Below, piece by piece: positions 2,689 through 22,100 of a DNA stretch of 64,000 nucleotides (positions are counted from its first letter, which is position 1; each line of letters starts with the position of its first letter). The notes under the pieces were generated by a model that made no database searches, was not told the origin of the DNA, and saw nothing but the letters and a program-made list of their open reading frames with translations. Origin of the DNA: a virus; IMG/VR virus record IMGVR_UViG_3300032267_001142, positions 1-64,000 of that record, one strand, 5' to 3'. Made by a program: the position numbers and the translations under genes.

Positions 2689-2799
2689 TTTCAAATAAGT
2701 CGAAATAAGTCATATTCGAGGTATGGCCGTGATGAGGTGCGAAAAGGCAAATAAGAAAGGGTATAGGTATTTGCGCTTTCCTGGCCGCCCGGCATGGGC

Positions 2800-2832
2800 A
2801 AAAAAAGAGGGACGCTCTCGCGAGCGCCCCTC
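2800..2832 (-). terminator. Intrinsic terminator of the DUF932 gene
   Basis: Minus strand GAGGGGCGCTC-GCGA-GAGCGTCCCTC followed by T7; GNRA loop. Confidence 0.85.
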
Positions 2833-2846
2833 TGTGATTCTGCCGC

Positions 2847-3929
2847 CTAGACTTCGGCGGATTCGCTGCGGTCGGAACGGGCGATTTCGACAAGCGCCAA
2901 GCGTCCCGCCTCTTTCAGCTCGTTCACCTTTTCGGGCGAGAGCAGGAGGTTTGCGAATGCCTGCTTATGCTCAGAGGCATCGCCAAACTCAGCCTTGTAT
3001 GCCTTCGTTCCCGCGTCCGCCTTCTTGCCGGTGCCGTCGCCGGAAGTCCAGAACTCCGTCGCGCCGTTCAGCATGTCGTAAAGCGAGCGACCGTTGTTTC
3101 CCTTGCCACGGAGGAAAAGGCGAGCAATTTCGTTCGCCGAATTTTCCGCACGCTTTGAGATGAGCGGCTTGTCGCTTTCCTGCGCGAAGTAGCCGAACGC
3201 GATAAGGCGAGCGTCATCCGTCGTGCAAGGCACGCCCGCAAGATATTCCATATTGGAACGGAAGCGAGCGCGGCCCGTGAGGACTTGGTTGATGAGACCG
3301 CCGAGGTTTTTCATCGCGGACTGCGCGCCCTTGGAATGGTAAACCTTGAATTCGAGATTGCCCTTTGCGTCTTCCGTGAGACTAGCGCGGAGCGTGTTCA
3401 TGCAGACGATTCGCACAAACGAATCATAAGCGCACATGCCCAGCGTGCCGTCGTGAGAAGTCACGAAGTTAAGGTTGGCGCGGTATTCGTCACCGTTGAC
3501 GGTAAACTTGCCGTCGTCTTCGGCGAGCTTCACAGAGATGAAGAACTTTTTCGCGCCTTCCAGTGTGCCGATGCAAGTGACTGTTGCGCTCACGCCACGG
3601 ATGGCTTCCGACATAACAGTCCAGACTTCGCGGTTGGAAATCTGCTGGTACGACTTTTTCGGAATGTGAAGCGGCACGTAATGCTGCGGCTGGCCGTTCA
3701 AATCTGGACGCACTGCGCCGAGGTTGGCGATAAGCGCCTTATGCGCGCTCATGGACACGGGAGCGGTGCTGCCGGTGACGTTCGCGACGATAGGTGCCTC
3801 GAAGATGTCGAAGAGAAATGGCGACGCGACCGCATCGTCGATGACGGGCTTGACGATGGCGAGCCCGTGCCATTCCGCGCCGAGGGTGGAGATGATGTTG
3901 TCGATAGGTGCAATGATTCCGTGTGACAT
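2847..3929 (-). CDS. DUF932 family (LGT_TIGR03299-type phage/plasmid) protein
   Basis: Motifs TSHDGT and VRIVCMNTL plus C-terminal LYDMLNGATEF are typical of DUF932. Start reassigned to the ATG at 3929 (MSHGIIAP, 360 aa); the track's longer start runs through the promoter and the CAA leader. Confidence 0.85.
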   Translation of the reverse strand: MSHGIIAPIDNIISTLGAEWHGLAIVKPVIDDAVASPFLFDIFEAPIVANVTGSTAPVSMSAHKALIANLGAVRPDLNGQPQHYVPLHIPKKSYQQISNREVWTVMSEAIRGVSATVTCIGTLEGAKKFFISVKLAEDDGKFTVNGDEYRANLNFVTSHDGTLGMCAYDSFVRIVCMNTLRASLTEDAKGNLEFKVYHSKGAQSAMKNLGGLINQVLTGRARFRSNMEYLAGVPCTTDDARLIAFGYFAQESDKPLISKRAENSANEIARLFLRGKGNNGRSLYDMLNGATEFWTSGDGTGKKADAGTKAYKAEFGDASEHKQAFANLLLSPEKVNELKEAGRLALVEIARSDRSESAEV

Positions 3930-3942
3930 AGTAGTGAGATGC

Positions 3943-3965
3943 TGTTGTTGTTGTTGTTGTTGTTG
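3943..3965 (-). repeat. (CAA)7-8 microsatellite in the 5' leader of the DUF932 gene
   Basis: Plus strand (TGT)n, lying between a predicted TSS hairpin (GTGGC-AGAC-GCCAC) and CTCACTACT-ATG. Confidence 0.85.
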
Positions 3966-4142
3966 CGTGGCGTCTGCCACTGAAAAGAGAATAGCAGAGC
4001 GTCTAAAAAGAGCAACACTTTTTCGCACAAATCGCCACTTATTTTTAGCCCCGCGCCGAGCCCGCAGGAGCCGGGCTGCCAGGTATCTTCGCCTTTCAAA
4101 GTTTCCGATTGACGAATACACAAAGCCCGCTAATGTTCTGGC

Positions 4143-4856
4143 ATGGCATACACGCTCCTATCAGTCGGCAAAGACGCTAAAACGGTCAAAGGCGAAAAAT
4201 TCGGATACCTTACGGGTATTCTCTACATGCAACCGGCTAGCCTTTCCGGCGTCAATCTGTGTCGCGGCTCTAGTGCCGGATGCCGCGAAGCTTGCCTTTT
4301 TTCCGCTGGCATGGCGAAATTTCCGGCAGTCAAAAAGGGCCGCGCACGCAAGACCGCGATGTTTCTTAACCAGCCCGAAGAGTTTATGAAAGCTCTGAAA
4401 GCGGACGTTGCTTTGCTGGAAAAGCAAGCGAAAAAGAAGGGCATGGGCGCGGTCGTTCGCCTTAACGGTACGACGGACATTCCTTGGGAGGAGCATACTA
4501 TCGACGGCTTGACTATCTTCGAGCATTTTCCAAACGTCAATTTCATGGACTACACTAAAATCCTTAAGCGCATGCTAAAGGGTTCTGCGGCGCTTGCGCA
4601 TCCTAATTATCATTTGACATTCTCGCGCTCTGAGGCAAACGAGCGGCACGCTAGGCTGGTAATGTCTATCGGCGGCAATGTGGCCGTCGTGTTCGCTGGT
4701 AAGACTTTGCCGAAAACCTTTTTGCGCAAGCGTGTTGTCAATGGGGACGAAAGTGATTTGCGCTTTTTGGATAAGAAAGGCGTGGTTGTCGGCCTTTACG
4801 CGAAGGGCAAGGCGAAAAAGGATACTAGCGGATTCGTGGTAATCAACGCCCGCTAA
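4143..4856 (+). CDS. Gp88-family protein (Cys-x6-Cys-x3-Cys, radical-SAM-like)
   Basis: LLSVGKDAKTVKG, GILYMQPA, NLCRGSSAGCREACL, VRLNGTTDIPW, FMDYTK, YHLTFSRSE, VVNGDESDLRFLD: the motif order I recall for the phage Gp88 family. Confidence 0.8.
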   Translation: MAYTLLSVGKDAKTVKGEKFGYLTGILYMQPASLSGVNLCRGSSAGCREACLFSAGMAKFPAVKKGRARKTAMFLNQPEEFMKALKADVALLEKQAKKKGMGAVVRLNGTTDIPWEEHTIDGLTIFEHFPNVNFMDYTKILKRMLKGSAALAHPNYHLTFSRSEANERHARLVMSIGGNVAVVFAGKTLPKTFLRKRVVNGDESDLRFLDKKGVVVGLYAKGKAKKDTSGFVVINAR

Positions 4857-4866
4857 TACTCTCACT

Positions 4867-4929
4867 ATGGGAATCATTGTTCTAGCAGTTTCCCTGTATG
4901 TCATCTGTAAGATAGGGGGAAGACTTTAA
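4867..4929 (+). CDS. Putative 20-aa hydrophobic micropeptide
   Basis: MGIIVLAVSLYVICKIGGRL*; CTCACT-ATG context resembles the DUF932 start; followed by a hairpin. Confidence 0.35.
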   Translation: MGIIVLAVSLYVICKIGGRL

Positions 4930-4991
4930 CACTCACAAATAAACCAGAGGCCCGCGCTCTGTTAGGCCGGGCAGCCAGGAATAAAAACCTA

Positions 4992-5429
4992 TCACCCGAT
5001 AGGAGTCACTTCATAAAGAGCCCGCACTTTGACACGCTTGCCAATGGGAAAGCGGTCATAAATCATGCCGTTAATTAGAGGAAAGACATGGCCGCGCACC
5101 GAAAAGACGAAGGTGCCAAGCTTATATTTTTGCTGGTAGTAGGAAACGGTCTTGCCTTTCTGAAATCCTTTCACGGGCTCCATTTTGATGCCGAAATTCT
5201 CAGCCTTCGCGACGACTTTATGAAAGTGCATTCCGCGCCTGTCTTTTCTGCCGAGCTTCGCCACTTCGGCGTGGCACGTCGTATAGTCTTTGCCGGAAGC
5301 ATGAACCATCGTGCCGACAACGCAATCGTGCCTTTCGTGCTCGAACCTGCCGCCTTCATAGATGGCGGTGTCAGCGAAGTACGGCTGTCTGATGACTACT
5401 CTGGCGATTCGGCGAGGCGGCACGTTCAT
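4992..5429 (-). CDS. Conserved phage hypothetical protein (possible Cys-His-Asp papain/C39-like fold)
   Basis: Start reassigned to ATG 5429, downstream of the promoter TTGACT-16-TATTCT. Motifs HDCVV, VRGHVF, IYDR. Confidence 0.65.
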   Translation of the reverse strand: MNVPPRRIARVVIRQPYFADTAIYEGGRFEHERHDCVVGTMVHASGKDYTTCHAEVAKLGRKDRRGMHFHKVVAKAENFGIKMEPVKGFQKGKTVSYYQQKYKLGTFVFSVRGHVFPLINGMIYDRFPIGKRVKVRALYEVTPIG

Positions 5430-5538
5430 AACTTCGTGAAGAATACAGGATTGACAAATACAGTCAACAACAATTTTCAGATGACCTGGCAGCCCGGCGT
5501 GCTGCCCAATAGTCAAAGATAATACCTCGTTAAGAAAG

Positions 5539-5612
5539 TGCGCCCGACAGGACTCGAACCTGTAACCTCGGGATTATGAGTCCCTCGCTCTAAACCGTTG
5601 AGCTACAAGCGC
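5539..5612 (-). tRNA. tRNA with CAU anticodon (Met elongator or Ile2)
   Basis: Minus strand GCGCTTG-TA-GCTC AACGGTTTA GAGC-G-AGGGA CTCATAA TCCCG...ACAGG TTCGAGT CCTGT-CGGGCGC-A. Full cloverleaf; CCA not encoded; G1-C72 excludes initiator. Confidence 0.9.
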
Positions 5613-5624
5613 TTATGTAGATTC

Positions 5625-5999
5625 TTAAATTGCTCCGCCGTCGATTTCGGCGAACGCTTCGGCCACCGTATTCGTTTCGCCGACCGTGTGACTGTTCCGC
5701 CAGAATTCGATTTTCCGACCGCGACGCTCCACGTTCACGCCTTCGCGCTGTGCGTGATAAACGAGGTTCTTGAATGTTGACGCTTTTCTTTTGACGATAA
5801 AGCGATAAGTGCCAATCGCCTTACAGTATATCGTGTCGGATAGGCTCACTTTTGCGATGCACCTTTCGACGTCGCGGGGCATGTGTCGATTCGCCGAATG
5901 CATGATATAGTATTCCCCCTCGATATTCGTCGGGCCAAAGCGAACGAGTTTCCAGTGACGAGCAACGGATGCGGGAAGTTTCGGGAGTGCGGGTGCCAT
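5625..5999 (-). CDS. Hypothetical protein
   Basis: 124-aa ORF with promoter TTGACA-16-TACGCT-7-ATG. Confidence 0.75.
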   Translation of the reverse strand: MAPALPKLPASVARHWKLVRFGPTNIEGEYYIMHSANRHMPRDVERCIAKVSLSDTIYCKAIGTYRFIVKRKASTFKNLVYHAQREGVNVERRGRKIEFWRNSHTVGETNTVAEAFAEIDGGAI

Positions 6000-6014
6000 G
6001 TGTTAGAGCGTAGA

Positions 6015-6332
6015 CTAGATTTTACGAATGTCAACAGGATAAGGGCCGTTTCTCGTGATTGAGATTCCCCAAAATTTGAGAGCCGCGTCCTCATATTTGC
6101 GAAACTTCTTGCCATGATGAATGCCACCCTCGCAAAAGTGAGTTACTTCATGGACAGCCATGTAGGTCGCGATTGTTTCGCTTTTCGTGAGAATCCACTT
6201 GGGCATCGTGATATACCCTTCATCGGTGAAAGCTTCGGCGCGGCACGTATCGCCCCAGACGACGCGAATCGGGCTCAGCTCCAAATGCTTTGCGGTCACG
6301 TTGACCACAGTTTCAAACATCGCTTTCGTCAT
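6015..6332 (-). CDS. SprT-like/zincin HExxH metalloprotein
   Basis: YMAVHEVTH...HHGKKFR; leaderless start at 6332 after TTGCTA-16-TACAGT. Confidence 0.75.
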   Translation of the reverse strand: MTKAMFETVVNVTAKHLELSPIRVVWGDTCRAEAFTDEGYITMPKWILTKSETIATYMAVHEVTHFCEGGIHHGKKFRKYEDAALKFWGISITRNGPYPVDIRKI

Positions 6333-6412
6333 GTGGAGACTGTAGACGCTGGCACGGAGATAGCAAGAAGTATTTTCAACTATCCGGGCAGCCAGGAACA
6401 CCAGAGCAGAGT

Positions 6413-6844
6413 CTATTTCTCAAGAATGTATATTTCGTAACTTCCGTCTTTGCGCAGAGAGCGAAAAGGCAACTCGATGTATCCTTGCCAAGTCCCTTTA
6501 GAGGTGAAACCGTTTAACTTCCTTCTGTCTCTCCTGACAGTAAAGAACGCAGTGCCGTCATCTTGAAGCAGATTAAAGACCTTTTCGACGACCGCCATCC
6601 TATCTTCCTTTTCCGGAATGACATTGAGCACGAAGTTGCAAGTGATAGTTCTGAACTTACCACTTTTAGGAAGAACGAAGAAAGGAAAATAGTGAGGGTC
6701 GTACTTTTTGAATCCTATCGAGTCAGCGCACTTACCCCTTCCACATCCATAGTCAAGTCCATCGGGAATAAGCAACCCGCTCTTTTGCAGCCAGCGCATC
6801 GGGGATGATAGCTTGTTACGTCCTATGGCGGTTAAATGGCTCAA
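6413..6844 (-). CDS. Class I SAM-dependent methyltransferase resembling the DNA-phosphorothioation-associated methyltransferase domain
   Basis: H.TAI.R..LS.P, LDYGCGRG, KYDPHY, TCNFVLNVIP. TTG start at 6844 is preferred because the ATG at 6877 lies inside the promoter spacer. Confidence 0.75.
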   Translation of the reverse strand: MSHLTAIGRNKLSSPMRWLQKSGLLIPDGLDYGCGRGKCADSIGFKKYDPHYFPFFVLPKSGKFRTITCNFVLNVIPEKEDRMAVVEKVFNLLQDDGTAFFTVRRDRRKLNGFTSKGTWQGYIELPFRSLRKDGSYEIYILEK

Positions 6845-6932
6845 ATCCTTTGGTGTTGTTCTGTGACTGTATCTCATAGTAGTAGTGATGCAAGTTTTAT
6901 TTTGAAAATCCTGGTTGCCCGGCATGATGAAA

Positions 6933-6956
6933 GCGCTGCGGGTTGCCCCGCAGCGC
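6933..6956 (-). terminator. Intrinsic terminator
   Basis: 10-bp stem GCGCTGCGGG/CCCGCAGCGC with a GCAA loop on the minus strand, followed by TTT. Confidence 0.7.
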
Positions 6957-6970
6957 GTGAGGTCGCGTGA

Positions 6971-7387
6971 CTATTCGTAGTCGTTAAATGGTTTGCTGTC
7001 CACCGTTCCGCCCGTGTCGAAAACTGAGCCGCGACGGGCTGCGGGAACGTACCCAGACGATTCTTTCACGAGCGAGCCGAGGAATCCTTCGACCAAAGTA
7101 TTCAGCTCATGCTTGAATCCGTCCCGTTTGCCCTTCCACTTTGGCCCGATTTCTCGCGAAAGCTGAGCGCCAAAAACTCGCTGCAAACCCTTTTTCAGAT
7201 TGTCGCGATATGCGGAAAGGTTCACGGATGTTGATTCTCCGTCCTTGTAGTCGTCATCCTCTTTTAGCGGCATTACCGCACCGTAGTTGATTAAGTGATT
7301 GACAAGCACAGCAAGGTGCTTTGCGTCGCCGGAAAGGTTCAGGATATAGGTGCTGCCGTAGGGACGAATGGTGCCGGTGATGTTCAT
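6971..7387 (-). CDS. Hypothetical protein
   Basis: Start reassigned to ATG 7387 (MNITGTIRP), 6 nt after a CACTCT -10 box. Confidence 0.7.
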   Translation of the reverse strand: MNITGTIRPYGSTYILNLSGDAKHLAVLVNHLINYGAVMPLKEDDDYKDGESTSVNLSAYRDNLKKGLQRVFGAQLSREIGPKWKGKRDGFKHELNTLVEGFLGSLVKESSGYVPAARRGSVFDTGGTVDSKPFNDYE

Positions 7388-7479
7388 GCGTGAAGAGTGC
7401 CATGCCCGCAAATAGAACGCAAGCTTTTTCTTTGTAGAACCTGGCAGCCCGGACATAAAATTCATACCTTGCTTTATGC

Positions 7480-7740
7480 CTATCGGTATAACTCTCGAAT
7501 TGATTTCGGCAACATTGGAACGCGTGCCCGCGCAGTAGCTTCATCGCATGACTCAGCTAGCTCAACAAGCTCTTGGACTTCCCAACGAAGACCCACATAA
7601 AACCCTTGTGGACTCAAATCGGTATACACCGAATAACCGTAGCTATAACCTTTCTGGAAGACGAAGATTTTGTTCGCCGAAGATATCGACTTGAAAAATG
7701 TCGCCTCGGCTGGCGGAGTAGTAGGACGAGGTTTAATCAT
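7480..7740 (-). CDS. Isolated MIKP-start small protein
   Basis: MIKPRPTTPPAEATFF...; same ATGATTAAA start and Pro-rich N-terminus as the 1-2.7 kb array, on the opposite strand. Confidence 0.6.
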   Translation of the reverse strand: MIKPRPTTPPAEATFFKSISSANKIFVFQKGYSYGYSVYTDLSPQGFYVGLRWEVQELVELAESCDEATARARVPMLPKSIRELYR

Positions 7741-7818
7741 TTAGTAAGAAGCCCTCGCCGCTTAGGACAACGGCGAGCGCTCTTAACATTTATTTTTAGT
7801 GCCCTTTTCGAGTCCGCG

Positions 7819-8061
7819 CTAACTAGAGCGCGTGCTGCGGCGCGGCGACTTTCGCTTGTTTTCGGTCTGCTTGCCTTCGGCGCGAGCCTTGGCGGCAGAG
7901 GCGAAAGAGCTGTCCACGGTCGTTCCCTTGGTGCTCGGGAACGCGGTGATGACGAGTGACGTGCCGAGCCCCGGCTTACCATCACGAGGAATGGAAGCGC
8001 CTTTGACGACGCCCGTGGAGAGGTTGACTTTGCGCAGTGCGCGAGTTTGACGATTGGCCAT
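7819..8061 (-). CDS. Small basic hypothetical protein
   Basis: 80-aa ORF with a CAA-rich leader (GTAAGCAACAACACCAACACC...) and an internal promoter TTGATA-16-TACTCT. Confidence 0.65.
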   Translation of the reverse strand: MANRQTRALRKVNLSTGVVKGASIPRDGKPGLGTSLVITAFPSTKGTTVDSSFASAAKARAEGKQTENKRKSPRRSTRSS

Positions 8062-8094
8062 GTTGGTGTAGGTGTTGGTGTTGTTGCTTACAGT

Positions 8095-8418
8095 TCAGAG
8101 AGTATCGGATTTTGCGACAGTATCAAGGGGAACGTCCGCGATGGGCTGTTCCTCGACGCGAAGGGTTTTGCCGTTGTCGACGATGATGTGCCAATTCTTT
8201 CCGGCTTCGAGATGAAGAAACTGCACGGTGCCGTCGATGGAAAGTTCCACGGTCGCCTTTGGCGCTTCGACGGTTTCGGTGAATTCTTCAGACGTGCTTG
8301 AGGCGACGTCTTCAGCAGTGGCGGTCGCGAGGCGCGAAGTAGATGAGGTGACGCACGCGACGATGACGCCGATGAGAATGAGGACGCACAGGAAGTAGGA
8401 CAGTTTTGAGGTTTTCAT
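8095..8418 (-). CDS. Putative lipoprotein / exported protein
   Basis: Basic N-terminus, hydrophobic stretch and IVAC lipobox-like motif; own promoter TTGACA-16-TAAACT. Confidence 0.65.
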   Translation of the reverse strand: MKTSKLSYFLCVLILIGVIVACVTSSTSRLATATAEDVASSTSEEFTETVEAPKATVELSIDGTVQFLHLEAGKNWHIIVDNGKTLRVEEQPIADVPLDTVAKSDTL

Positions 8419-8455
8419 GATGTGAGGAGTTTACGGGCTTTTCTTATGATGTCAA

Positions 8456-8644: not shown

Positions 8645-8649
8645 GAAGT

Positions 8650-8961: not shown

Positions 8962-9029
8962 GACGAAAGATTAGCGCAGCGCTTAGAAAAGTCAACAACT
9001 GATTTCGCTTACTCCTGGCAGCCAGGTAA

Positions 9030-9325: not shown

Positions 9326-9330
9326 GCACC

Positions 9331-9471: not shown

Positions 9472-9502
9472 GTAGTAGATACTAGCGGCTTTTCCCGTGG
9501 AG

Positions 9503-9850: not shown

Positions 9851-9977
9851 AGGTTCGGTCTTGAATCGAGGGTAGCCTATCAAATAAGGAAGTCAAGAAT
9901 AAACCTCATATGCCTGGCAGCCCGGTATAGCACGAGAAGGGCGACCTCGCGGTCGCCCTTCGTGATTACTTTGTCGG

Positions 9978-10666: not shown

Positions 10667-10729
10667 ATGCGAAACCTGGCAGCCAGGAATGCATAATATA
10701 TGAGTGTGACATGCCTAATGTCCAAACCG

Positions 10730-11071: not shown

Positions 11072-11269
11072 GAACGAGATACTACAACAAATAGCGGAGG
11101 CGTCAAGGACTTTCTATGTGGCCCTGGCAGCCCGGTATAAACAATCTCCGCCCGCAGAAGCTTTTGCGACTACGGACGGAGGGTTATAACAAGATGCCTG
11201 TCTTGTGTTTAACTTCGCAGCCTAACGGCACCGATTAGGCCGCTGCATTCGCTGTGGCGACACTAACAA

Positions 11270-11857: not shown

Positions 11858-11951
11858 GCGCGAACACTACTTGAACTTCGGCGCGTTGTCAAATACAAAA
11901 GCAGCTTATCCTCAAGTATACCTGGCGGCCAGGACTAAAGCCTTTCGGCCT

Positions 11952-12299
11952 TCACGAGAGGACTCCTTTTAGTTTCATCTGAGACCGCAGAGCTTCGAGA
12001 CGTAAATCTGCTAGGCTCAGGTCTTGCAGCGCCTCAGTGTCGAAATAGCTAAGTTCGTTATTTGCAGCGATGATTATAGAGTAGCACGCTTGGCGCGAAA
12101 GGTATCCGCTTTCGATGTCGAAGATATATTCCACTGTGTTGTGCGGACGGATTGCGCCGATACGCTTGATTGCGGCATCGCATCCCATAATCGTACCATC
12201 GTGCGGCTCGCTGCCAGTAGAAAGCGCTTTTCCAGATTCGCAGAAGATGAAGCTGTTGTGGCGCTCGTGGATGACGATGATGAGATGCGTTTTCTTCAT
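11952..12299 (-). CDS. Hypothetical protein
   Basis: Leaderless start at 12299 (MKKTHLII) after TTGCTT-16-TACTCT. Confidence 0.75.
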   Translation of the reverse strand: MKKTHLIIVIHERHNSFIFCESGKALSTGSEPHDGTIMGCDAAIKRIGAIRPHNTVEYIFDIESGYLSRQACYSIIIAANNELSYFDTEALQDLSLADLRLEALRSQMKLKGVLS

Positions 12300-12366
12300 G
12301 TGGTCAGAGTAGCAGCGGCAAATATCGAAGCAAGTCTTTTCTTTGAGCATCCTGGCAGCCAGGTAT

Positions 12367-12398
12367 AAAAGCTAAGCGGGGCTTTCGCCCCGCCTAGC
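12367..12398 (-). terminator. Intrinsic terminator
   Basis: GCGGGGC-GAAA-GCCCCGC on the minus strand, then TTTTA, abutting the palindrome at 12351. Confidence 0.8.
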
Positions 12399-12404: not shown

Positions 12405-13208
12405 TTATTGCTTGCGCTTTGCCAGAAGCTTGCCGCTCAGCCACGCACGGATGCACGCGACCCTTTTGACGTCGACGCCATAGCGGCGGGCGATGATTTC
12501 GGAAGCCTCGCCGAATCGCGTGATGTCGTGACGAATACTTTCCCGCGTCTCGTTGTCGATTTTGCTCTTCTTCGGCGCTGGACGCCGGAAGATAAGCGTT
12601 GCCATACCGTTTACCGCGCCGGTGTTTTTGTAGTGGTCGGAATCGACAAACTCAAGGCCGGTTTTGCTGGTGATGTATGCGGCGATGGCTTTGTAGTCTT
12701 TGATGGACTCAACTGTGAATCCTGCCGGAAGTTTGGCGGTGTGCGTGGCACGGAAACTGCCGCGAATGATGATGGTGAGCGCTAAGACTTGGCTTCTCTT
12801 CGTAATGTCAATGACACTGTCGGCGAGATTGGCGGTAAACCAACTGCAAGTGTCGAAGTCCACGAATGTCGCCGTGCCGTAGATTGCCCAAGCTCCAAAT
12901 TTCGTGCTGTCGAAGCTCACGCTCGTAATCCCGCTTTCTTGTCCAAGCACATTGAACTTTTGACGAGCCTTGGGAATCTCGGCTGGGTTGTTGTTGAACG
13001 CGAAAATGTGGCACTTGATGGAATTGTGATTGCCGAATTTCACCAGCTCGGTCTCGAACTTTGCGGAAGCGCCGCACAGCGTGTAAACCCAATGGGTCGA
13101 GCCGCCAAGTGGCGCATAGTCTTTGAGCGCCTTCTTGGCGTGGCCAAGCTTGAAGAGACGATTTGCGGTTTTGACTGCGGAACGGTGATAAGAACGGGTG
13201 TTGCTCAT
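12405..13208 (-). CDS. Methyltransferase-fold-like protein with C-terminal helix-turn-helix
   Basis: Rossmann-like pattern (VYTLCG, IFAFNN, FVDFDTC, Y...GMATLIFRR). C-terminal ETRESIRHD...ASEIIARRYGVDVKRVACIRAW looks like an HTH. Confidence 0.5.
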   Translation of the reverse strand: MSNTRSYHRSAVKTANRLFKLGHAKKALKDYAPLGGSTHWVYTLCGASAKFETELVKFGNHNSIKCHIFAFNNNPAEIPKARQKFNVLGQESGITSVSFDSTKFGAWAIYGTATFVDFDTCSWFTANLADSVIDITKRSQVLALTIIIRGSFRATHTAKLPAGFTVESIKDYKAIAAYITSKTGLEFVDSDHYKNTGAVNGMATLIFRRPAPKKSKIDNETRESIRHDITRFGEASEIIARRYGVDVKRVACIRAWLSGKLLAKRKQ

Positions 13209-13276: not shown

Positions 13277-13292
13277 TGGCATGCCGCTTGCT
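13277..13292 (+). promoter_or_regulatory. Sigma54 (RpoN) -24/-12-like site
   Basis: TGGCATG-CCGC-TTGCT with exact GG-N10-GC spacing; intergenic. Confidence 0.55.
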
Positions 13293-13345
13293 ATACGAGT
13301 TCCCGGCGGCCAGGATTAAAACCCTAACTATTTTTGGAAGGCTCA

Positions 13346-13827: not shown

Positions 13828-14185
13828 GGACAGACTCTAGCGTTTCCAAATACGAAGTCAACAAAGAAATCGAAAACCTGGCAGCCCGGCAACGAACGAG
13901 ACGCCAATCAGGTTTATCTGTTGGCGCTCGCCTCTGCTGCTGACCTTACGGTTTGACAAACAGAGATATTCTATAAAGTGGTGGACGTATCGTGCCCTTA
14001 CGCCGGATTTCTACCGGAAGTCATCGCGTTTGACTAGACGTTTGTTACCCGATTTGCCGACTTTTTGCGGAGCCGTTCCCTCTGCGCGCAAACGCAACGG
14101 GAAACTGTTTGTCAGTGCCTCTAGGCAAAGTGTTAAAAATTCTCTCTTGTAGGCGCGCATTATGTGCCTCGCTATTCTTGCAAGA

Positions 14186-14312
14186 TGGCCCATACTGGAA
14201 TCGAACCAGTGCCTCTATCGTTAACGCCTGTCTGCTTACGCTACGTTTGCGCTCGCATTAGACTCGTCAGTCAAGCGCGTAGAAAGAAGTTCTGCCATTA
14301 AACTAATGGGCC
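14186..14312 (-). tRNA. tRNA-like gene with a ~55-nt structured insertion in the anticodon arm
   Basis: Acceptor GGCCCAT/ATGGGCC-A, D arm GTTT-AATGGCA-GAAC, T arm ACTGG-TTCGATT-CCAGT. 77 nt lie between position 26 and the T stem instead of about 22. The frame and a GTTAA near the 3' side resemble tRNA-Asn. Confidence 0.8.
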
Positions 14313-14346
14313 GTTATCGTTTCAACTACCTTGCAACTCTGAGAGC

Positions 14347-14518
14347 GTTTTAGAACTGTTTGGCGTCGGCAAGGATAATCCCCTTGCAATTCGTCACATT
14401 ATGTGTATGGCTAAGACACATTTTTAGACTACTTCATCTTTTAAGTCAGCCCACGGCCAAGCGGAAACTTTAAGGATAGGCGTGTATCGCGCATCTCGCC
14501 GCCAAACAATTCTAAAAC
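14347..14518 (-). ncRNA. Candidate 172-nt ncRNA closed by a 19-bp stem
   Basis: GTTTTAGAATTGTTTGGCG (14518-14500) pairs with CGCCAAACAGTTCTAAAAC (14365-14347), one G-U. Internal hairpins GCAAGG/CCTTGC and ATGTGT/ACACAT. Lies between a promoter (14562-14589) and the aberrant tRNA. Confidence 0.6.
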
Positions 14519-14549: not shown

Positions 14550-14628
14550 CTGATAGTTAAGAGATTAGCAACCTTCGCCGGAAAGACAAGAGAAATCTTC
14601 GCGATTCCTGGCAGCCAGGTATAACAAA

Positions 14629-14694: not shown

Positions 14695-14699
14695 TGAGG

Positions 14700-14888: not shown

Positions 14889-14899
14889 AAAAGAAAGGA

Positions 14900-14957
14900 C
14901 GGACGCGACGGGACTCGAACCCGCAGTTTGAACGCTCTACCATTAAGCTACGCGCCC
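14900..14957 (-). tRNA. tRNA-like gene lacking the anticodon arm (58 nt)
   Basis: GGGCGCG-TA-GCTT AATGGTA GAGC-GTTCAAACT-GCGGG TTCGAGT CCCGT-CGCGTCC-G. Acceptor, D and T arms intact; only 9 nt between the D and T arms. Confidence 0.8.
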
Positions 14958-14965
14958 GATTGAAA

Positions 14966-15331: not shown

Positions 15332-15335
15332 AGTA

Positions 15336-15491: not shown

Positions 15492-15609
15492 AACGAGGTC
15501 ACTGTAGCAGCGCCAAATACGAAAGCAAGGATTATTTTAGGATATCCGGGCAGCCAGGTATTGACAGAGGCCGCGCCCACTCAGGCGCGGCATGTCAGCT
15601 ATGAAAATT

Positions 15610-16140: not shown

Positions 16141-16223
16141 AACGTGATGAAGATAGCAGACCCAAATACTAACACAAGAACTTTCTTCAACTATCCTGGC
16201 AGCCCGGACTAAAGGCCGCAGCC

Positions 16224-16403: not shown

Positions 16404-16404
16404 G

Positions 16405-16647
16405 TCAGAAGGATAAGCGGAACTCGCGGAATACAGGAATGACGTTTGGCATGTTACCCGCTAAGACGCGGCGATAGGCTGCGGCCTTTTCGGGCGTATT
16501 GATTGGCAGAATCGCCAAAGTATCGCGCACCAGCTTCTTTTGCAAAGCGATTTCCGCCAGTACGACTTGAGAAACAATCGGCCCACGGCCCAAGGGCCGA
16601 ACTCCAATGTTAGCTTTCTCTGCACCTTCGGCGTATTCCAGTGACAT
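16405..16647 (-). CDS. Hypothetical protein
   Basis: 80 aa; leaderless promoter TTGCTA-16-TATTCT. Confidence 0.7.
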   Translation of the reverse strand: MSLEYAEGAEKANIGVRPLGRGPIVSQVVLAEIALQKKLVRDTLAILPINTPEKAAAYRRVLAGNMPNVIPVFREFRLSF

Positions 16648-16748
16648 ACTGAGAGAATAGCGCGACTGCGCGGAATAGCAAGAAGTATTTTAGGATACCT
16701 GGCAGCCCGGTGATGACAGGGGCCGCTCATGAAGGTGGGGCTTGGTTT

Positions 16749-16946
16749 TCATTCGAGCCATTTAGCGATTTTGTGAACAAATGCAGCGATTAGAGGAATG
16801 CAGAAACACACAACCAAAATGCCAATAGTTGTCCCTTCCGGATTCGCGAGATACATCGCGATAAGTAGCATAGCGAAAAACGTCGCGCCCGATAGGAAGA
16901 ACAGGGCGATTAGAGTGGCGATGAAGTAACGAAGGGACTTTGGCAT
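16749..16946 (-). CDS. Small two-TM membrane protein (65 aa)
   Basis: MPKSLRYFIATLIALFF...; two hydrophobic segments; promoter TTGACT-16-TAGAGT. Confidence 0.7.
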   Translation of the reverse strand: MPKSLRYFIATLIALFFLSGATFFAMLLIAMYLANPEGTTIGILVVCFCIPLIAAFVHKIAKWLE

Positions 16947-17063
16947 ATTGATGACTCTAGCAGGTGCAAATACGAAGTCAACGGCTTTCTTTGTAAACCT
17001 GGCAGCCAGGAAAACGAACATTTCTCTTGCTTAGCGTGTCGTGTCATGTATAGTTCTCTCGCT

Positions 17064-17309
17064 ATGAACATCGTCGCCAATCCCGCCGCCCGTCTTTTGT
17101 CTGCAATCGAACGCCTTAGCTCGGCAATGCGCCGCCTGCGTAATCGCGGCCAGTGTGCGGATTCGGTTGCGCGTTTTGGGGATTTGGAAACTGATAGGGC
17201 GCTGCGCGCTCGGCTTTTTGCTGATGTTCGTGACGAATCCCGCTCTGTTCGTGAACACATTCGCGAGTGTGCCGTCATCGCATACGGATATGCGGCCTGT
17301 CTAAAGTAA
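17064..17309 (+). CDS. Hypothetical helical protein
   Basis: MNIVANPAARLL... divergent from 16946; promoter TTGCTT-16-TATAGT. Confidence 0.7.
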   Translation: MNIVANPAARLLSAIERLSSAMRRLRNRGQCADSVARFGDLETDRALRARLFADVRDESRSVREHIRECAVIAYGYAACLK

Positions 17310-17412
17310 AAGGAACAAATATCGGCCACCTCGAAAGCTTCAATACCGGGCTGCCAGGAATCTAAAACAAAACTGTTGACTGCACGCGCTGAGCTGGTAG
17401 AGTCTTCACGTT

Positions 17413-17811
17413 ATGACGATTCACGCTCCTTTCCTTATCACCCCGCGTTTAATGGCAGGCGTCCGCGTTGGCGGCGCGTTCATTTCCATCGGTGGCGGGC
17501 CTCGCAATTCTGAGAACCGTACGCGATACGGCGTTTTTATTGACCTTCCCGAAGGAAAAGAGTTTGAAATCACTGACCTTCGTTCCGGTTGCGGCGGTGG
17601 CGACCTCAAGAGCGGAATGGAGTCGCTGCTTTCTTTTCTGGGCGCGGCGGCTGAGTCGTTCAGGTATCGCGGAGCGCTTTGGGAGAATGTGGAGGCAGAT
17701 GACAACGCCAACCTTTTCCCTCGTGAGGTCACCGAGTGGGCATATCAGAACGGCGACGAAATTTCAATGCTGGAAATCGAGATTCAAGAATCGGACTGCA
17801 TCGGGGAGTGA
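17413..17811 (+). CDS. Conserved phage hypothetical protein
   Basis: LLSFLGAAAES.RY...DNANLFP..V.EWA.QN.DEISML motif; own promoter. Confidence 0.75.
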   Translation: MTIHAPFLITPRLMAGVRVGGAFISIGGGPRNSENRTRYGVFIDLPEGKEFEITDLRSGCGGGDLKSGMESLLSFLGAAAESFRYRGALWENVEADDNANLFPREVTEWAYQNGDEISMLEIEIQESDCIGE

Positions 17812-17895
17812 GGCGGAAGCGGTAAATAAGACAGGACCGCCACTGTCAGATACCTGGCAGCCAGGTATTAGAGCCGCAGGCGCTCTAGTGGCTCG

Positions 17896-18120
17896 CTATG
17901 TCAGTTTGCGCCTGCAACATGGGCAGGTATCGGTGTCGGTAGTGATACGCTTCACTCCCGCACCGAGGTTGTAAACACGAAACGGTGTCGAACGATTTGC
18001 CAGCTCAGCCACAAGCCACGCGGCGGGCTTGTTATTCGTCAGCGTTTCATCAATAGACAAAGCCGAATCCATTCGGATAGTCATGTTGCGCTGCCATGTG
18101 GGATTGATGATTGTTGCCAT
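17896..18120 (-). CDS. Small protein with a C-terminal CPCC motif
   Basis: 74 aa; YNLGAGVKRITT.TD.CPCC; leaderless promoter. Confidence 0.75.
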   Translation of the reverse strand: MATIINPTWQRNMTIRMDSALSIDETLTNNKPAAWLVAELANRSTPFRVYNLGAGVKRITTDTDTCPCCRRKLT

Positions 18121-18238
18121 GTGCAGAAGCTAACAGACTCGCGGCTGGAGTCAATAGTTATTTTTGAAAACCTGGCAGCCCGGAATAAAAGCTGACGCGC
18201 CCGCCACCGCAGTAGCGAGCGCGCCGTGCTATGAAAAA

Positions 18239-18508
18239 CTAGCGGCGACGGAACTTGTAATCCGGCGACTTCGGGTCGTACGTCTTCGTGAGCGGGACGT
18301 AGCGCGTTTCCACGTTGTCGCCGTGCGTGACGGTGATTTCGCGGGCGACTTCCCACTTGCTTTCGCGCATGACTTCCGCGCCCTTCTGTTCAGCCTGCGA
18401 GACGTCGGTGAAGCCCGACTCGCCGCCGTGCAGCGTGGGAGTCATGGTGCCCGCCAAGATGAGAGAGGCGGAGAGGATGATGATGCGATAGGAGATGCGG
18501 CGTTTCAT
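18239..18508 (-). CDS. Small exported/membrane-anchored protein
   Basis: Signal-like N-terminus MKRRISYRIIILSASLILAG; CAA-rich leader. Confidence 0.7.
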   Translation of the reverse strand: MKRRISYRIIILSASLILAGTMTPTLHGGESGFTDVSQAEQKGAEVMRESKWEVAREITVTHGDNVETRYVPLTKTYDPKSPDYKFRRR

Positions 18509-18688
18509 GGTGTTTGTGTTGTTGGTGTTGCTTACTTGGACACTGTAGCACGGCCCCGCTGAGTTGCAAGAGGAAAATGCAGATTTCTATGATAATCCTG
18601 GCTGCCCGGTATAAAGGGTGAGCCTCGGAACCTATAATCAGGCCGAGGCTCGAATGGATTTCGCGCTTGCGCGCTAGGCTCACGTAAC

Positions 18689-18958
18689 CTATTCGCCCCC
18701 GAAGAACTCAGGCGATTCGTCGTGCTCGCAGTCGTCCGGATACATATGGCTGTCGTCCGTGCGGTCCTCGTACGACGCGTCGAGATAGGCGTCTTCGCGC
18801 CCGTCGAGTTCGGAGTCTTCGTAGTCGTCGTCATCGCGACCGCCAGCGCGGATTTCCGCGAGGATGTCGAGCGCGTCGAGTTCTTCGCGCCCCGCGAGTT
18901 CGCTCGCGGCGGCGTGCATGTCTTCGGCTTCAGTGGAGAAGTGCATTTCAGGATTCAT
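18689..18958 (-). CDS. Highly acidic small protein
   Basis: 32 of 89 residues are D/E, with 5 R and no K; own promoter. Confidence 0.75.
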   Translation of the reverse strand: MNPEMHFSTEAEDMHAAASELAGREELDALDILAEIRAGGRDDDDYEDSELDGREDAYLDASYEDRTDDSHMYPDDCEHDESPEFFGGE

Positions 18959-19083
18959 AGCGTGATGACTGTAGCATGGACAAATATGGCGTCAACATGT
19001 ATTTTTCGATACCGGGCAGCCAGGGATAAAGGGTGAGGGCGCGGCCTTTGCGACCGCGCCCTCTTTAGGTGTTGCGCTTGTGT

Positions 19084-19419
19084 TTAGTTTGCTTGGCGGA
19101 TTTTGTTGATGGCGCGCTCGGCCCATCCGTCATTCTTGTACGGGAAGAGTTCGGGGAACGCCTTGCGGTAGTTGCTGACACGCACGGCTGCGGAGGTCAT
19201 CTGAATACCCCAGACCGCGCTCAATTCGCGGATTGTCAGACGGCTGTACTGCTCGGCGTAGACGAGGGCGAGAGCTTTGGAACGCAGCGGACGCCCTTTG
19301 CGAAAGTGGCTCTTCGCGGGCGTTTTGTGAGGTGTCGTAGGCTGTTGCATCGCCTGATTAAAGGCGGTGATTGCTGCGGCGAGTGCGATGAGGAGTTGGT
19401 TGTTGTTTGTTGCTTTCAC
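19084..19419 (-). CDS. Helix-turn-helix DNA-binding protein (putative)
   Basis: LTIRELSAVWGIQMTSAAVRVSNYRK is HTH-like; GTG start 7 nt after TGGACA-16-TAGGCT. Confidence 0.6.
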   Translation of the reverse strand: MKATNNNQLLIALAAAITAFNQAMQQPTTPHKTPAKSHFRKGRPLRSKALALVYAEQYSRLTIRELSAVWGIQMTSAAVRVSNYRKAFPELFPYKNDGWAERAINKIRQAN

Positions 19420-19546
19420 GAGGAAGAGCCTATCTGAAAAAAAGGAATTGTCCAAAAGAATCAAAAACAAGTTTCATGCCAGCTATGGAGCTTCCGGGCT
19501 GCCAGGTTTCCATTGACTCTTCGTGCCCCTCTGCTATTGTTCACCC

Positions 19547-19741
19547 ATGACTAAAGGCCACTTCAACAGCTCAACCAACGAGGGTATTTCCAATCGCGGC
19601 GTCCACTTTCACATCGCGAGGGAAGCCGACCGCGACGAGCCCGACAACACGCGTTTCGAGTATAACATTCACCCAGTCAGCGGCCCAGTCATTTCGCGTG
19701 ACACGCTGAAGGAAGCCGTCGAAAGGGCGATGGAGCTGTAG
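19547..19741 (+). CDS. Small RDEPDN-motif protein (paralog of 22946..23137)
   Basis: MTKGHFNSST...DRDEPDNTRFEY...DTLKEAV. Confidence 0.75.
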   Translation: MTKGHFNSSTNEGISNRGVHFHIAREADRDEPDNTRFEYNIHPVSGPVISRDTLKEAVERAMEL

Positions 19742-19846
19742 CATTCTGAGTGGTTGGTAGCCAAATAAGGTTGCCAGCCGCTCTCGGCTATACCGGGCAG
19801 CCAGGATTGTTGTTGACTTGTCGGTCTGTTCAAGTATCTTTCCCGC

Positions 19847-20023
19847 ATGAGCACCGCCGCTATTGACATCCTGCAAATCAAAATCGTTCTCGCCGTCTAT
19901 AAGGAGACGAAGACTAAAGGTGAAGCTTTCGAGCTAGCTCGACAGCGCGGCTTTGTCATGGGCAGTCGAGACTTTGGATTGATGTGGGAAACCGTTGACG
20001 CGTGTGCGTGGGACGCGGCTTGA
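19847..20023 (+). CDS. Small hypothetical protein (58 aa)
   Basis: MSTAAIDILQIKIVLAVYKE...AWDAA*; leaderless promoter TTGACT-16-TATCTT. Confidence 0.7.
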   Translation: MSTAAIDILQIKIVLAVYKETKTKGEAFELARQRGFVMGSRDFGLMWETVDACAWDAA

Positions 20024-20053
20024 CATTAGCGAAAGCTCTGATATTTTCACAAC

Positions 20054-20239
20054 ATGTACAACGTCTGCCCAGTTCGGTCTTCACTCATTCACGAAATCAC
20101 GGAGGTTTCAGGCCATGCGCCTAACATCACCGGCAAGGAAAGCGAGGCTGTGCTCAAGGAAATCCTCGCCCGCGCTCGCTACGCCAAGCACGCGGAAACC
20201 TATCCCGACAATCGCAACACCGTCCGCCATGAAGTGTAA
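20054..20239 (+). CDS. Small hypothetical protein
   Basis: 61 aa; leaderless promoter TTGACA-16-TATTTT. Confidence 0.7.
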   Translation: MYNVCPVRSSLIHEITEVSGHAPNITGKESEAVLKEILARARYAKHAETYPDNRNTVRHEV

Positions 20240-20376
20240 AGTGTAACTCACCGCCTCGCGGATACTACTAGTTCAGTCAAATAACCATCTAGCCCCAATC
20301 TCGGCAAGCCGGGCTGCCAGGTAACAAGAGAAAGCACCCGCGTCGTGCGGATGCGCCCCCTTGCTATGATGAAAGT

Positions 20377-20604
20377 TCAGAAGACTCGAATGACAATCGG
20401 CGGGCAGAAGTTGGGCCGGATTTCACGAAGTTCATGCACGTTGACCGGACGGAACACATTAGGAATGCCGAGCGTACGAAACGCGGCGTGCATGGCGAGA
20501 TTTTCAGGGACTTTGGTTTCTTCGTGTCCATTAGCGAGCCAGCGCAGACGGATGCGAGCGGCCACCATTTTCTTGCGCTGCTCAGGAGTAACGAGGTTGT
20601 TCAT
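20377..20604 (-). CDS. Small basic hypothetical protein
   Basis: Start reassigned to 20604 (MNNLVTPEQRKKM). Confidence 0.65.
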   Translation of the reverse strand: MNNLVTPEQRKKMVAARIRLRWLANGHEETKVPENLAMHAAFRTLGIPNVFRPVNVHELREIRPNFCPPIVIRVF

Positions 20605-20743
20605 AGCGTCGAGACTATGACATGTGCCTAGGTGTATGTCGAGAGAAATCCAAAACAATTTCCGTGCCAACCCAAAGCCCTTGATACCTATAGACTAGCC
20701 AAATATAGTCCATAACATTAACCAAAAAGACCTGGCTGCCCGG

Positions 20744-20916
20744 CTTTCTCATTTTTGAGAGTCCGATTTTCTCATTTCTGATAATTCTCAAAAGTAAGAG
20801 TGAGAGGTCGTTCTCATTTCTTAGAGTTTCTCATTCTTGTTTTTGCGAGGCTCTCATTCTCATTATTAATACTCTCAAACACGAGAAGCCCGCCCTCATT
20901 TCTGAGAGCGGGCTTC
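20744..20916. repeat. CTCA/TGAG repeat array 1
   Basis: CTCA at 20748, 20771, 20787, 20813, 20830, 20853, 20859, 20874, 20895, many as CTCA-N4-TGAG-like units. Ends in hairpin GAAGCCCGC...GCGGGCTTC (20885-20916). Confidence 0.85.
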
Positions 20917-20935
20917 GGTAGGTTGTTCGGGCTCG

Positions 20936-21292
20936 CTAGCTGGGAAGCTGCAAGGGAAATTCCGAGGGTTTGACTGGACGCTCGACAAGGTCTGGCATGA
21001 CTTGCGCGCCACGTAGGTCAATCACGACGCCATGCACGGTCTTTTTCCAGTCGTAGCACGACGAACCGGAAGGCACGGCGGTCCACCCATCTGTGCCGAA
21101 AATTTCGGCGGCGCGCACAAGTCGCGATTCGTCATGCTCAACATAGCTGAAGAGCGTCGGAGTGGAAAGGTCAGAGACTCCGAAGTCGGAAAGGTTAGTC
21201 CCTTCCGGTAGCTTGGCCAGCATGCTGTCGAAAGTGGCGAGCTTCGTGCGTTGCGCGTTGAGTGAATCGGCGATGTGTTGGTTGTTTTTCAT
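20936..21292 (-). CDS. Hypothetical protein
   Basis: 118 aa; promoter GTGACA-16-TAGAGT-9-ATG. Confidence 0.75.
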   Translation of the reverse strand: MKNNQHIADSLNAQRTKLATFDSMLAKLPEGTNLSDFGVSDLSTPTLFSYVEHDESRLVRAAEIFGTDGWTAVPSGSSCYDWKKTVHGVVIDLRGAQVMPDLVERPVKPSEFPLQLPS

Positions 21293-21351
21293 AACGCAAC
21301 CACTCTATCACGAGCGGGCCGCATGTCACGTTAATTTTCTGTCATCTTGGT

Positions 21352-21396
21352 CTAGCAATGTTCGTGCCAGACGCATTTTCTTTTTAGTTTGGCATG
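21352..21396. promoter_or_regulatory. Divergent sigma54-like -24/-12 pair
   Basis: Minus 21369-21354 TGGCACG-AACA-TTGCT (full consensus). Plus 21390 TGGCATG-AAAC-TATTT (-12 degenerate). The two -24 boxes are 20 bp apart. Confidence 0.55.
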
Positions 21397-21455
21397 AAAC
21401 TATTTTTTGAAAGAATGCGTGACATGGCTGTGGCAGGGTGTATAGTCGGGACGCT

Positions 21456-21698
21456 ATGAAAAACACCGCTTCAATCACTCACTACTCGCAACTGCTCAAG
21501 GGCGCAATCTATGTCGTCGAAGGGCGCACAGCGCGCTTCACTGGCGTCGTCAAACGTGTCGCACCGCTCTTTACGCGTCGCCCCATTTTCAGGGAACACG
21601 GCGTGCGATTCTCCGCCAAGATTACCAAGGTGCGCCGCGCCACCATTCCCGAGGTTGCCGCCTACCTTGGCAAGACGGTGGCAGACATGCGCGGTTAG
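21456..21698 (+). CDS. Small basic protein (paralog of 22600..22944)
   Basis: THYSQLLKGAIY...ARFTG...RPIF..HG.R..AK...V.AYLG. Confidence 0.8.
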   Translation: MKNTASITHYSQLLKGAIYVVEGRTARFTGVVKRVAPLFTRRPIFREHGVRFSAKITKVRRATIPEVAAYLGKTVADMRG

Positions 21699-21716
21699 CT
21701 ATCAACGCCCGCTAAG

Positions 21717-21746
21717 GTTCCGAGGGGGTTCCAACCCCCTCGGAAC
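21717..21746. terminator. Perfect 12-bp hairpin after gene 21456..21698
   Basis: GTTCCGAGGGGG-TTCCAA-CCCCCTCGGAAC; no clear U tract. Confidence 0.55.
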
Positions 21747-22100
21747 TGAGAGTTTCAGAAGTGAGATTCTCATTCTTGCTTTTGAGAATTCGCAGCGTTG
21801 AGAGTCTCGGTGTTGCGTTTGAGAGTCTCAAATATGAGGCTATTCTCATTTTTGCAAAGCCGGGCCTCCGGGTTCGGTGATGAACCTCAGAGGAGCAAAT
21901 ATATCGTATAGGCGTATCTTTGGAAGCCTGGCCGCCCGGTTTCTCATTTTTGAGAATGAGAGTCTCATTCTTGTTTTCGCGAATTCTCAGGTTTGCGATG
22001 TTGTTATTGAGAATTTCTCATTTCTGATATGTCAATTGTGAGGATTCTCATTCGCACAAACGAGAGCGAGGCCCTCATTCCTGAGAGCCTCGCATTCGTG
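21746..22100. repeat. CTCA/TGAG repeat arrays 2 and 3
   Basis: Dense TGAGA/ATTCTCATT/GAGAGTCTC units at 21746-21856 and 21940-22100. Array 3 starts directly after the palindrome at 21927 (as array 1 does after 20731) and ends in the equivalent hairpin GCGAGGC...GCCTCGC (22066-22093). Confidence 0.85.

Follow-up and report, generated by a model that had tools for sequence, protein, structure and literature searches.

In a temperate Streptomyces phage, 17-bp conserved inverted repeats (CIRs) that are bound by the phiC31 repressor occupy the early region. Class I activator sites, of the CRP type, are centered near -61.5 and at one-turn steps. T4-type phages RB49 and phi1 carry promoter-early stem-loop (PeSL) cassettes (Arbiol et al. 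2010, PMC2839356), and cluster A mycobacteriophages carry the operator/stoperator arrays of L5 gp71 (PMC9283540). Here we describe a 13-bp palindrome, CCNGGCNGCCNGG, that is repeated throughout the early-gene block of an uncultured phage, IMG/VR record IMGVR_UViG_3300032267_001142. The genome (labeled G000) comprises 186,105 bp, has a G+C content of 47%, and carries a terminal repeat of 123 bp; the stretch analyzed, referred to here as the window, covers the record's first 64 kb (positions 1 to 64000), and coordinates refer to it unless stated otherwise.

The 13-mer was found in 29 exact copies, every one of them between positions 2780 and 21939, against 0.02 copies expected from dinucleotide-preserving shuffles of the 64-kb window. 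Scanning the remaining 164 kb of the genome yielded zero exact copies. The motif is sharp: genome-wide, besides the 29 exact matches, 2 sequences differ from it at one position and 16 at two. The copy at 6910, CCTGGTTGCCCGG, has one mismatch; it is flanked by a terminator hairpin and, 16 nt away on the opposite side, by a promoter, and it is counted as a true 30th member because of this terminator-palindrome-promoter layout. At 21860, the match is a direct repeat rather than a palindrome. All 30 copies are intergenic. Ten fixed bases are unchanged across 29 copies, and the adjoining linker sequence varies from copy to copy. A preliminary description of the window had counted 30 copies, seen none of them in the late region, and proposed a genome-wide motif scan; the count stands as 29 exact copies plus the one at 6910, and the scan left them all in the early block. 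The feature is real and highly non-random; from it, we infer the mechanism proposed below.

The block (2780 to 21939) lies mainly on the minus strand and holds about 40 small, mostly orphan genes. It makes up about 10% of the genome, yet it houses all 30 copies. The majority of its proteins lack a family match in Pfam, NCBIfam, and PHROGs, no paralogous genes were found when the block was compared with itself, and megablast of the block against cultured phages gave no match. The genome encodes a large terminase and a portal protein. Metagenomic relatives of the terminase number in the hundreds, on contigs of 150 to 218 kb, but its best relative among cultured phages is only 24% identical. The phage belongs to a wholly uncultured lineage of large tailed phages and is not T4-like.

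Twenty-two of the 30 copies lie upstream of 23 sigma70-like promoters, recognized as consensus matches, with a TTGAC-type -35 box, a 16-bp spacer, and TAnnnT, some of them with TG directly upstream of the -10 box. The -10 box is 6 to 10 nt from the ATG, so that the mRNAs are predicted to be leaderless or nearly so. The distance from the palindrome to the start of the -35 box is 15 to 18 nt at 18 of the 23 promoters. It is 25 to 28 nt at three others (palindromes 4071, 11921, and 18597) and 6 to 7 nt at the last two (19494 and 19793), and all five shifted promoters fit 16.5 ± 10.5 nt to within 2 bp, i.e., about one helical turn. Taking the A of the ATG as the start, the palindrome centers lie at -57/-58, or one turn nearer (-47/-48) or farther (-66 to -69). 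One palindrome, 16998, is common to two divergent promoters and stands 16 nt from both. The linker is 70% A+T, compared to 53% for the same region in promoters that lack the palindrome, and includes an A-tract between the palindrome and the -35 box, with A in 18/18 promoters at one column. Only about 13 of the 29 copies have a strong hairpin upstream, separated from the palindrome by anything between 0 and 18 nt; it is thus relative to the promoter, not to the terminator, that the site is positioned. The order given in the preliminary description (terminator hairpin, palindrome, A/T-rich 16 to 17 nt, -35/-10, ATG) thus applies to the 18 promoters with a 15- to 18-nt linker but has to be amended for the five shifted by a turn and for the frequent absence of a strong hairpin.

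About 25 further leaderless sigma70-like promoters have no palindrome. They lie mostly at 157 to 186 kb of the genome and at 1735, with three (6034, 8455, and 9506) in the block itself. The window positions listed for this class also include 10593, 13689, and 20020. The two classes differ in the box within the 16-bp spacer, which is AAAA(C) in the palindrome-free promoters and TATTTG in the palindrome-linked ones. Since similar promoters elsewhere in the genome do without it, the palindrome defines a regulon. Four genomes related by their terminases (36 to 48% identity) were compared, two of which (G001 and G002) have leaderless TTGAC-N16-17-TAnnnT-N6-ATG promoters, likewise with no upstream palindrome. 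The palindrome is therefore a lineage-specific addition marking one promoter class, given the second class in this genome and the promoters of G001 and G002. Shine-Dalgarno sequences are missing also at the late gene starts inspected (window 30399 to 62335). Together with the leaderless promoters of G001 and G002, these late starts make leaderless expression look lineage-wide.

A box of the form TATTT(G/A) lies 24 to 26 nt from the palindrome in 20 of the 30 copies and 29 nt from it in one more (window 2748 to 21900). It is always on the minus-strand side, with 0 occurrences on the other side, and its background frequency is 7e-4 per base. The distance is kept where the -35 box is shifted (11921), at the promoterless copies 2780, 17853, 20309, 20731, and 21927, and beside plus-strand promoters.

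Read inward, the half-site is CC(T/G)GGC in 57 of 58 half-sites. T and G are the bases that share a major-groove keto group (K). The middle bases of the two arms combine T with G in 21 copies, both arms are CCWGG in 7, none has two CCSGG arms with G, and one pairs C with T; the 21 mixed copies bear out the earlier remark that the palindrome often joins one CCWGG and one CCSGG. The arms match at the middle base in 7 of 29 copies, compared to about 15 expected (p = 0.002). In the promoter-linked copies, the arm nearer the promoter reads CCAGG in 18/22, and T occupies the center of the coding strand in 19/22, biases that could reflect either function or shared descent. The K-type pattern is, from the sequence, what direct read-out by a protein would tolerate rather than what base pairing would demand. 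Along with the arm mismatches, weak folding, and the location between transcripts, it argues for a double-stranded DNA site for a symmetric dimer, rather than a hairpin in RNA or in single-stranded DNA; the likely reader is a dimeric DNA-binding protein.

The reading that we favor, with a probability of roughly 0.55, is that the palindromes are an array of operators through which a single dimeric DNA-binding protein co-regulates the palindrome-linked (class P) early promoters from about -58, possibly acting as a boundary too. The candidate protein, phage or host encoded, would be two-fold symmetric, each monomer reading one CC(T/G)GGC. The palindrome would be its operator, placed in an untranscribed spacer after one cassette and before the next promoter, with its center near -57/-58 and, between it and the -35 box, an A-tract resembling a (UP-type) site for the RNA polymerase alpha subunit. 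Once bound, the protein may contact RNA polymerase on one helix face, so that about 23 early promoters would be switched together. Shut-off or timing control seems somewhat likelier than obligatory activation because the promoters are near-consensus by themselves. Copies at convergent gene ends may double as boundaries. Of the three ideas put forward in the preliminary description, i.e., a regulon operator, a recombination anchor for cassette exchange, and a decoy for a two-site restriction enzyme, the operator is the best fit to the phased spacing, the K half-sites that tolerate unpaired arms, the untranscribed gaps, and the second promoter class that lacks the site.

Several points weigh against this operator reading. 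The half-site centers are only about 7 bp apart, and the usual spacing of helix-turn-helix dimers is wider. There are no weak variants of the site at all, which is more enzyme-like than is typical of operators. Eight copies have no nearby promoter (2780, 4967, 10675, 13302, 17853, 20309, 20731, and 21927), four of which (2780, 4967, 17853, and 20309) had already been described as such, and the promoters of the remainder are consensus matches, not mapped transcription starts. Among the early proteins, none matched a DNA-binding family in Pfam, NCBIfam, or PHROGs, and no binding protein was identified. Finally, no motif-bearing relative was reached, so co-variation lends no support.

The last point reflects the relatives at hand. 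No copy of the palindrome was found in G001 to G004, and the only block genes in common with them are DUF932 and GP88, so this absence neither supports nor refutes conservation. The terminase relatives at 63% identity that were examined are contigs of 11.6 and 18 kb which end short of the early region. IMG/VR scans for the palindrome with a -35 box, for the palindrome with an ATA flank, and for CAAATA-N24-26-palindrome returned single matches, at about chance level, and no multi-copy contig outside this record and near-identical ones. The 13-mer was not found as a motif in the literature searched.

Within the early block, the preliminary description had named two proteins as helix-turn-helix candidates, at 12405 and 19084. 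Neither has a Pfam, NCBIfam, or PHROGs match, and their C-terminal tails are helix-turn-helix-like by eye only. The protein encoded at 12405 to 13208 (minus strand) has no sequence homologues; the ESM Atlas model of its residues 1 to 212 resembles class I S-adenosylmethionine methyltransferases, and the tail that by eye recalls a helix-turn-helix is short and basic. Another small early protein, at 6413 to 6925 (minus strand), shows weak similarity to TIGR04096, a DNA-phosphorothioation-associated methyltransferase family (E = 1e-10, below cut-off), and to Methyltransf_23.

Among the alternatives, an unlikely but still tangible one is that the palindrome serves as a stoperator-like boundary or roadblock, where a bound protein would halt read-through polymerases from either direction and so insulate some 30 small units, its distance to the promoter being a matter of tight packing only. 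Each copy does lie at the end of a transcription unit, three promoterless ones (2780, 4967, and 17853) are at convergent gene ends, and a strong intrinsic terminator is missing in about half of the cassettes. There is also a precedent in the L5 arrays, with more than 20 13-bp sites in short intergenic spaces (PMC9283540). However, a roadblock needs no phasing, and it is the distance to the -35 box that is tight (15 to 18 nt, with exceptions at about one turn) whereas that to the hairpin ranges over 0 to 18 nt. Somewhat less probable is a PeSL-like cassette with no dedicated binder, in which the palindrome would be the conserved upstream edge of a duplicated promoter module of about 75 bp that now serves as a homology patch for shuffling. 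PeSLs, in which a sigma70 promoter is preceded by an A/T-rich region, do mediate shuffling (PMC2839356). In the block, self-comparison yields only promoter-plus-palindrome modules of 50 to 77 bp, 72 to 85% identical, which end at the palindrome or a few bases beyond, and palindromes flank the GP88 gene here, as a different repeat does in G004. Yet ten bases are invariant in 29 copies though the linker has diverged, implying direct selection on the 13-mer, and the palindrome is kept where the promoter has been lost. The block has no paralogous genes, no recombinase was found, and there is no close relative in which to map breakpoints. Searches of the genome for tyrosine (PF00589) and serine (PF00239) recombinases gave no match, with their controls detected, which speaks against an integron attC or other site-specific recombination site. 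The recombination anchor holds up as an analogy, the modules ending at the palindrome as PeSLs do.

The palindrome bundles two CCNGG words and one GGCNGCC, both of which the phage otherwise removes. With the palindromes set aside, CCNGG is found at 46 places where 308 would be expected, only one isolated CCNGG is left inside the block, and GGCNGCC occurs twice against 37 expected while its parts GGCNGC and GCNGCC are at normal levels. Because it is built of these purged words, retention of the 13-mer must be strongly selected. Over the whole genome, GATC is absent (about 580 expected), as are ATCGAT, CACGTG, CAGCTG, CCATGG, CCGCGG, CGGCCG, CTCGAG, CTGCAG, GAGCTC, GCCGGC, GGCGCC, and TTCGAA; CCTNAGG, expected 24 times, is missing as well, and CAGNNNCTG, expected 33 times, occurs once, whereas GANTC, AAGCTT, and GATATC are not avoided. 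Loss of CCNGG by deamination of 5-methylcytosine was rejected, since the products CT.GG and CC.AG are not in excess. The palindrome could, in this light, be an element linked to restriction or methylation, a sink, sensor, or methylation-gated switch for a host restriction-modification (RM) system or a phage methyltransferase. We regard this as improbable. In its favor, besides the depleted words and the absent GATC and six-base palindromes, there is a phage DNA methyltransferase, the only one found (locus L350, 155465 to 156157 of the genome, plus strand), of the N6/N4 beta class and closest to MboIIA-, CcrM-, and N4C-type enzymes, plus the two methyltransferase-like early proteins. But no enzyme of matching specificity was identified, the genome has no C5 methyltransferase, the deamination products show no excess, and a decoy would leave both the helical phasing and the K rule unexplained. 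The two-site decoy for an EcoRII-type enzyme found no direct support, as just 7 of the 29 copies have two CCWGG; a connection with restriction as such gained an unexpected basis in the purging of CCNGG and GGCNGCC elsewhere. Slightly less probable still is the specific version in which this kept bundle of purged words would be read by a restriction- or methyltransferase-like, or a methylation-sensitive, protein that gates the early regulon by the RM state at entry. If it were true, an early regulon, probably for host takeover or anti-defense, would be gated by the RM state met on DNA entry. The sharp question is why CCNGG and GGCNGCC are retained at just these 30 places and removed elsewhere. 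The least probable explanation is a nucleic-acid hairpin signal with a 5-bp stem and a 3-nt loop, either a single-strand promoter hairpin of the N4 type or a stem for the processing or termination of RNA. It has the formal 5+3+5 shape and a T at the center, on the transcribed strand, in 19/22 promoter-linked copies. The stem, though, folds in just 7 of 29 copies (-5.4 kcal/mol, the others reaching -0.7 to -2.2 kcal/mol), mismatched arms are favored rather than avoided (22 of 29), promoter and terminator calls put the site outside transcripts, and Rfam offered no match. On folding energies and arm mismatches, the hairpin reading was rejected as unlikely. A genome search for a T7/N4-type polymerase (PF00940) found no match, with no signal from the search control either.

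A sigma54 promoter within the palindrome was also rejected on reading the sequence, because the GG of TGGCAG has no GC at the distance of a -12 element, and nearby sigma54-like sites show no fixed geometry to the palindromes. The window contains eight sigma54-type -24/-12 matches (13277 to 13292, 21354 to 21369, and six with one mismatch), compared to 3 expected, a number reached in 2 of 100 shuffles.

The individual copies show the geometry in detail. The usual arrangement, a minus-strand promoter at 15 to 18 nt, is seen at 5485-5497 (-35 box at 5467, 17 nt away; ATG at 5429; a tRNA-Met upstream), 6384-6396 (-35 at 6366, 17 nt; ATG 6332), 7440-7452 (TTGCGT at 7422, 17 nt; ATG 7387), 9014-9026 (-35 at 8995, 18 nt; ATG 8961), and 9913-9925 (-35 at 9896, 16 nt; ATG 9850), the last with a strong terminator 5 nt upstream. 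It recurs at 11123-11135 (-35 at 11106, 16 nt; ATG 11071) and in the typical cassette of 12351-12363, which reads terminator (12371 to 12398), TTTTATA, palindrome, 17 nt, -35 at 12333, ATG at 12299. Farther along the block, the same layout is found at 13877-13889 (-35 at 13861, 15 nt; ATG 13827), 15546-15558 (-35 at 15528, 17 nt; ATG 15491), 16195-16207 (-35 at 16177, 17 nt; ATG 16140), 16698-16710 (-35 at 16681, 16 nt; ATG 16647), 18171-18183 (-35 at 18154, 16 nt; ATG 18120; upstream terminator at 18194 to 18225), and 19012-19024 (-35 at 18995, 16 nt; ATG 18958). The one-mismatch copy, 6910-6922, has its hairpin upstream and a minus-strand promoter-like TTGCAT at 16 nt. At 14607-14619, a minus-strand promoter (TTGTCT at 14589, 17 nt) precedes no open reading frame and stands before structured RNA and tRNA-like genes. 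This promoter (14589 to 14619) points at the structured RNA and tRNA-like genes of 14186 to 14518, and Rfam tRNA matches fall at 14186 to 14312 and 14900 to 14957.

The copy at 16998-17010 serves a minus-strand promoter (-35 at 16981, ATG 16946) and a divergent plus-strand one (-35 at 17027, ATG 17064), and 17346-17358 has a plus-strand promoter only (-35 at 17376, 17 nt; ATG 17413). Promoters shifted one turn outward are those of 4071-4083 (plus strand; TTGACG at 4109, 25 nt; ATG 4143 of the GP88 family gene), 11921-11933 (minus strand; -35 at 11892, 28 nt; ATG 11857 of an HD-domain gene; TATTTG still at +25), and 18597-18609 (minus strand; TTGCAA at 18569, 27 nt; 33-nt leader, ATG 18508). 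Those one turn nearer are both on the plus strand, at 19494-19506 (-35 at 19513, 6 nt; ATG 19547) and 19793-19805 (-35 at 19813, 7 nt; ATG 19847).

As to the promoterless copies, 2780-2792 comes after the terminator of the DUF932 gene, which is on the minus strand and converges with the plus-strand array, with a hairpin at 2806 to 2833 and TATTTG at +26 on the minus side. Copy 4967-4979 lies between convergent terminators, with no credible promoter and TATTTG at +25, and 17853-17865 is flanked by two convergent terminator hairpins. For 10675-10687, there is no promoter within 60 nt, the closest minus-strand one (10593) being 81 nt off. Copy 13302-13314, which has the sole non-K half-site (CCCGG), shows no clear sigma70 promoter and lies 93 nt from the start of the gene at 12405 to 13208, with the sigma54-like site 13277 to 13292 nearby. 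Copy 20309-20321 has no convincing promoter but retains TATTTG at +25 on the minus side. The final two, 20731-20743 and 21927-21939, the latter at the block edge, have no promoter and each adjoin a CTCA-N4-TGAG-type repeat array. The 30 bp at 20731 to 20760 recur at 21927 to 21955 with 93% identity and, following the last two palindromes, open these arrays at the edge of the block.

Beyond this genome, the GP88-family gene (4143 to 4856) that is bounded by palindromes here has a homologue in G004 (30519 to 31190) located between two copies of that genome's own, unrelated triple-hairpin repeat. The same cassette gene, judging from the two sequences, thus sits between lineage-specific boundary elements. 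In G004, a distant relative (IMGVR_UViG_3300046777_002930), positions 16675 to 36870 (loci L217 to L219) hold 13 copies of an intergenic GGGCC-N4-GGCCC flanked by two GTAAGTCGTTGA-type hairpins, and the same block has six sigma54-like TGGCAC-N5-YTGC sites against 0.2 expected.

If the palindromes are operators, an uncultured lineage would here offer an early regulon that is computationally defined and unusually clean, with about 23 leaderless sigma70-type promoters, one invariant operator, and a matched promoter class that lacks it. The 13-mer would then be a bait for finding the regulator that times host-takeover genes.

The array shares features with each of the systems introduced above. Class I activator sites are similar in that a dyad lies upstream of an A-tract of the alpha-subunit type, with helical phasing, and is usable by divergent promoters. 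The center here is at -57/-58, however, the half-sites are G/C-rich and about 7 bp apart, and the promoters, being near-consensus (TTGAC, some with TG upstream of -10), may not need activation. Like the phiC31 CIRs, the palindrome is one inverted repeat in many copies within early-region intergenic spaces, but the CIRs are 17 bp long, their phage is a temperate one of Streptomyces, and the promoters they accompany are of another type.

Stoperators, the sites of a single phage protein, offer the parallel of more than 20 highly conserved 13-bp sites in promoters and short intergenic gaps, here 30 and all intergenic. Theirs are asymmetric, bound by a monomer, and oriented with transcription, in contrast to the symmetric core found here, where only the TATTTR box is oriented; they are also genome-wide in a temperate phage, whereas the palindromes keep to 2.8 to 22 kb of 186 kb. 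The early proteins scanned, in searches not aimed at repressors, gave no match to a repressor family, and no integrase homologue was seen.

With PeSLs, the block has in common many small orphan early genes, each with a strong sigma70-type promoter, an A/T-rich upstream region, and a terminator, and a conserved module of about 75 to 100 bp repeated between the genes of one plastic region. Sigma70-like early promoters with A/T-rich upstream regions are indeed what was found (23 promoters, linker 70% A+T). The PeSL stem-loop, in contrast, is a genuine G/C hairpin, variable in position, and terminates transcription, while the element described here is an invariant, mostly unpaired 13-mer phased to the -35 box, with a stem in only 7 of 29 copies and separate hairpins at about 13 of 29; in addition, the mRNAs are predicted to be leaderless. 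Departing from the defining features of both PeSLs and stoperators, the palindromes would, by analogy, function like an array of operators added to early cassettes of the PeSL type.

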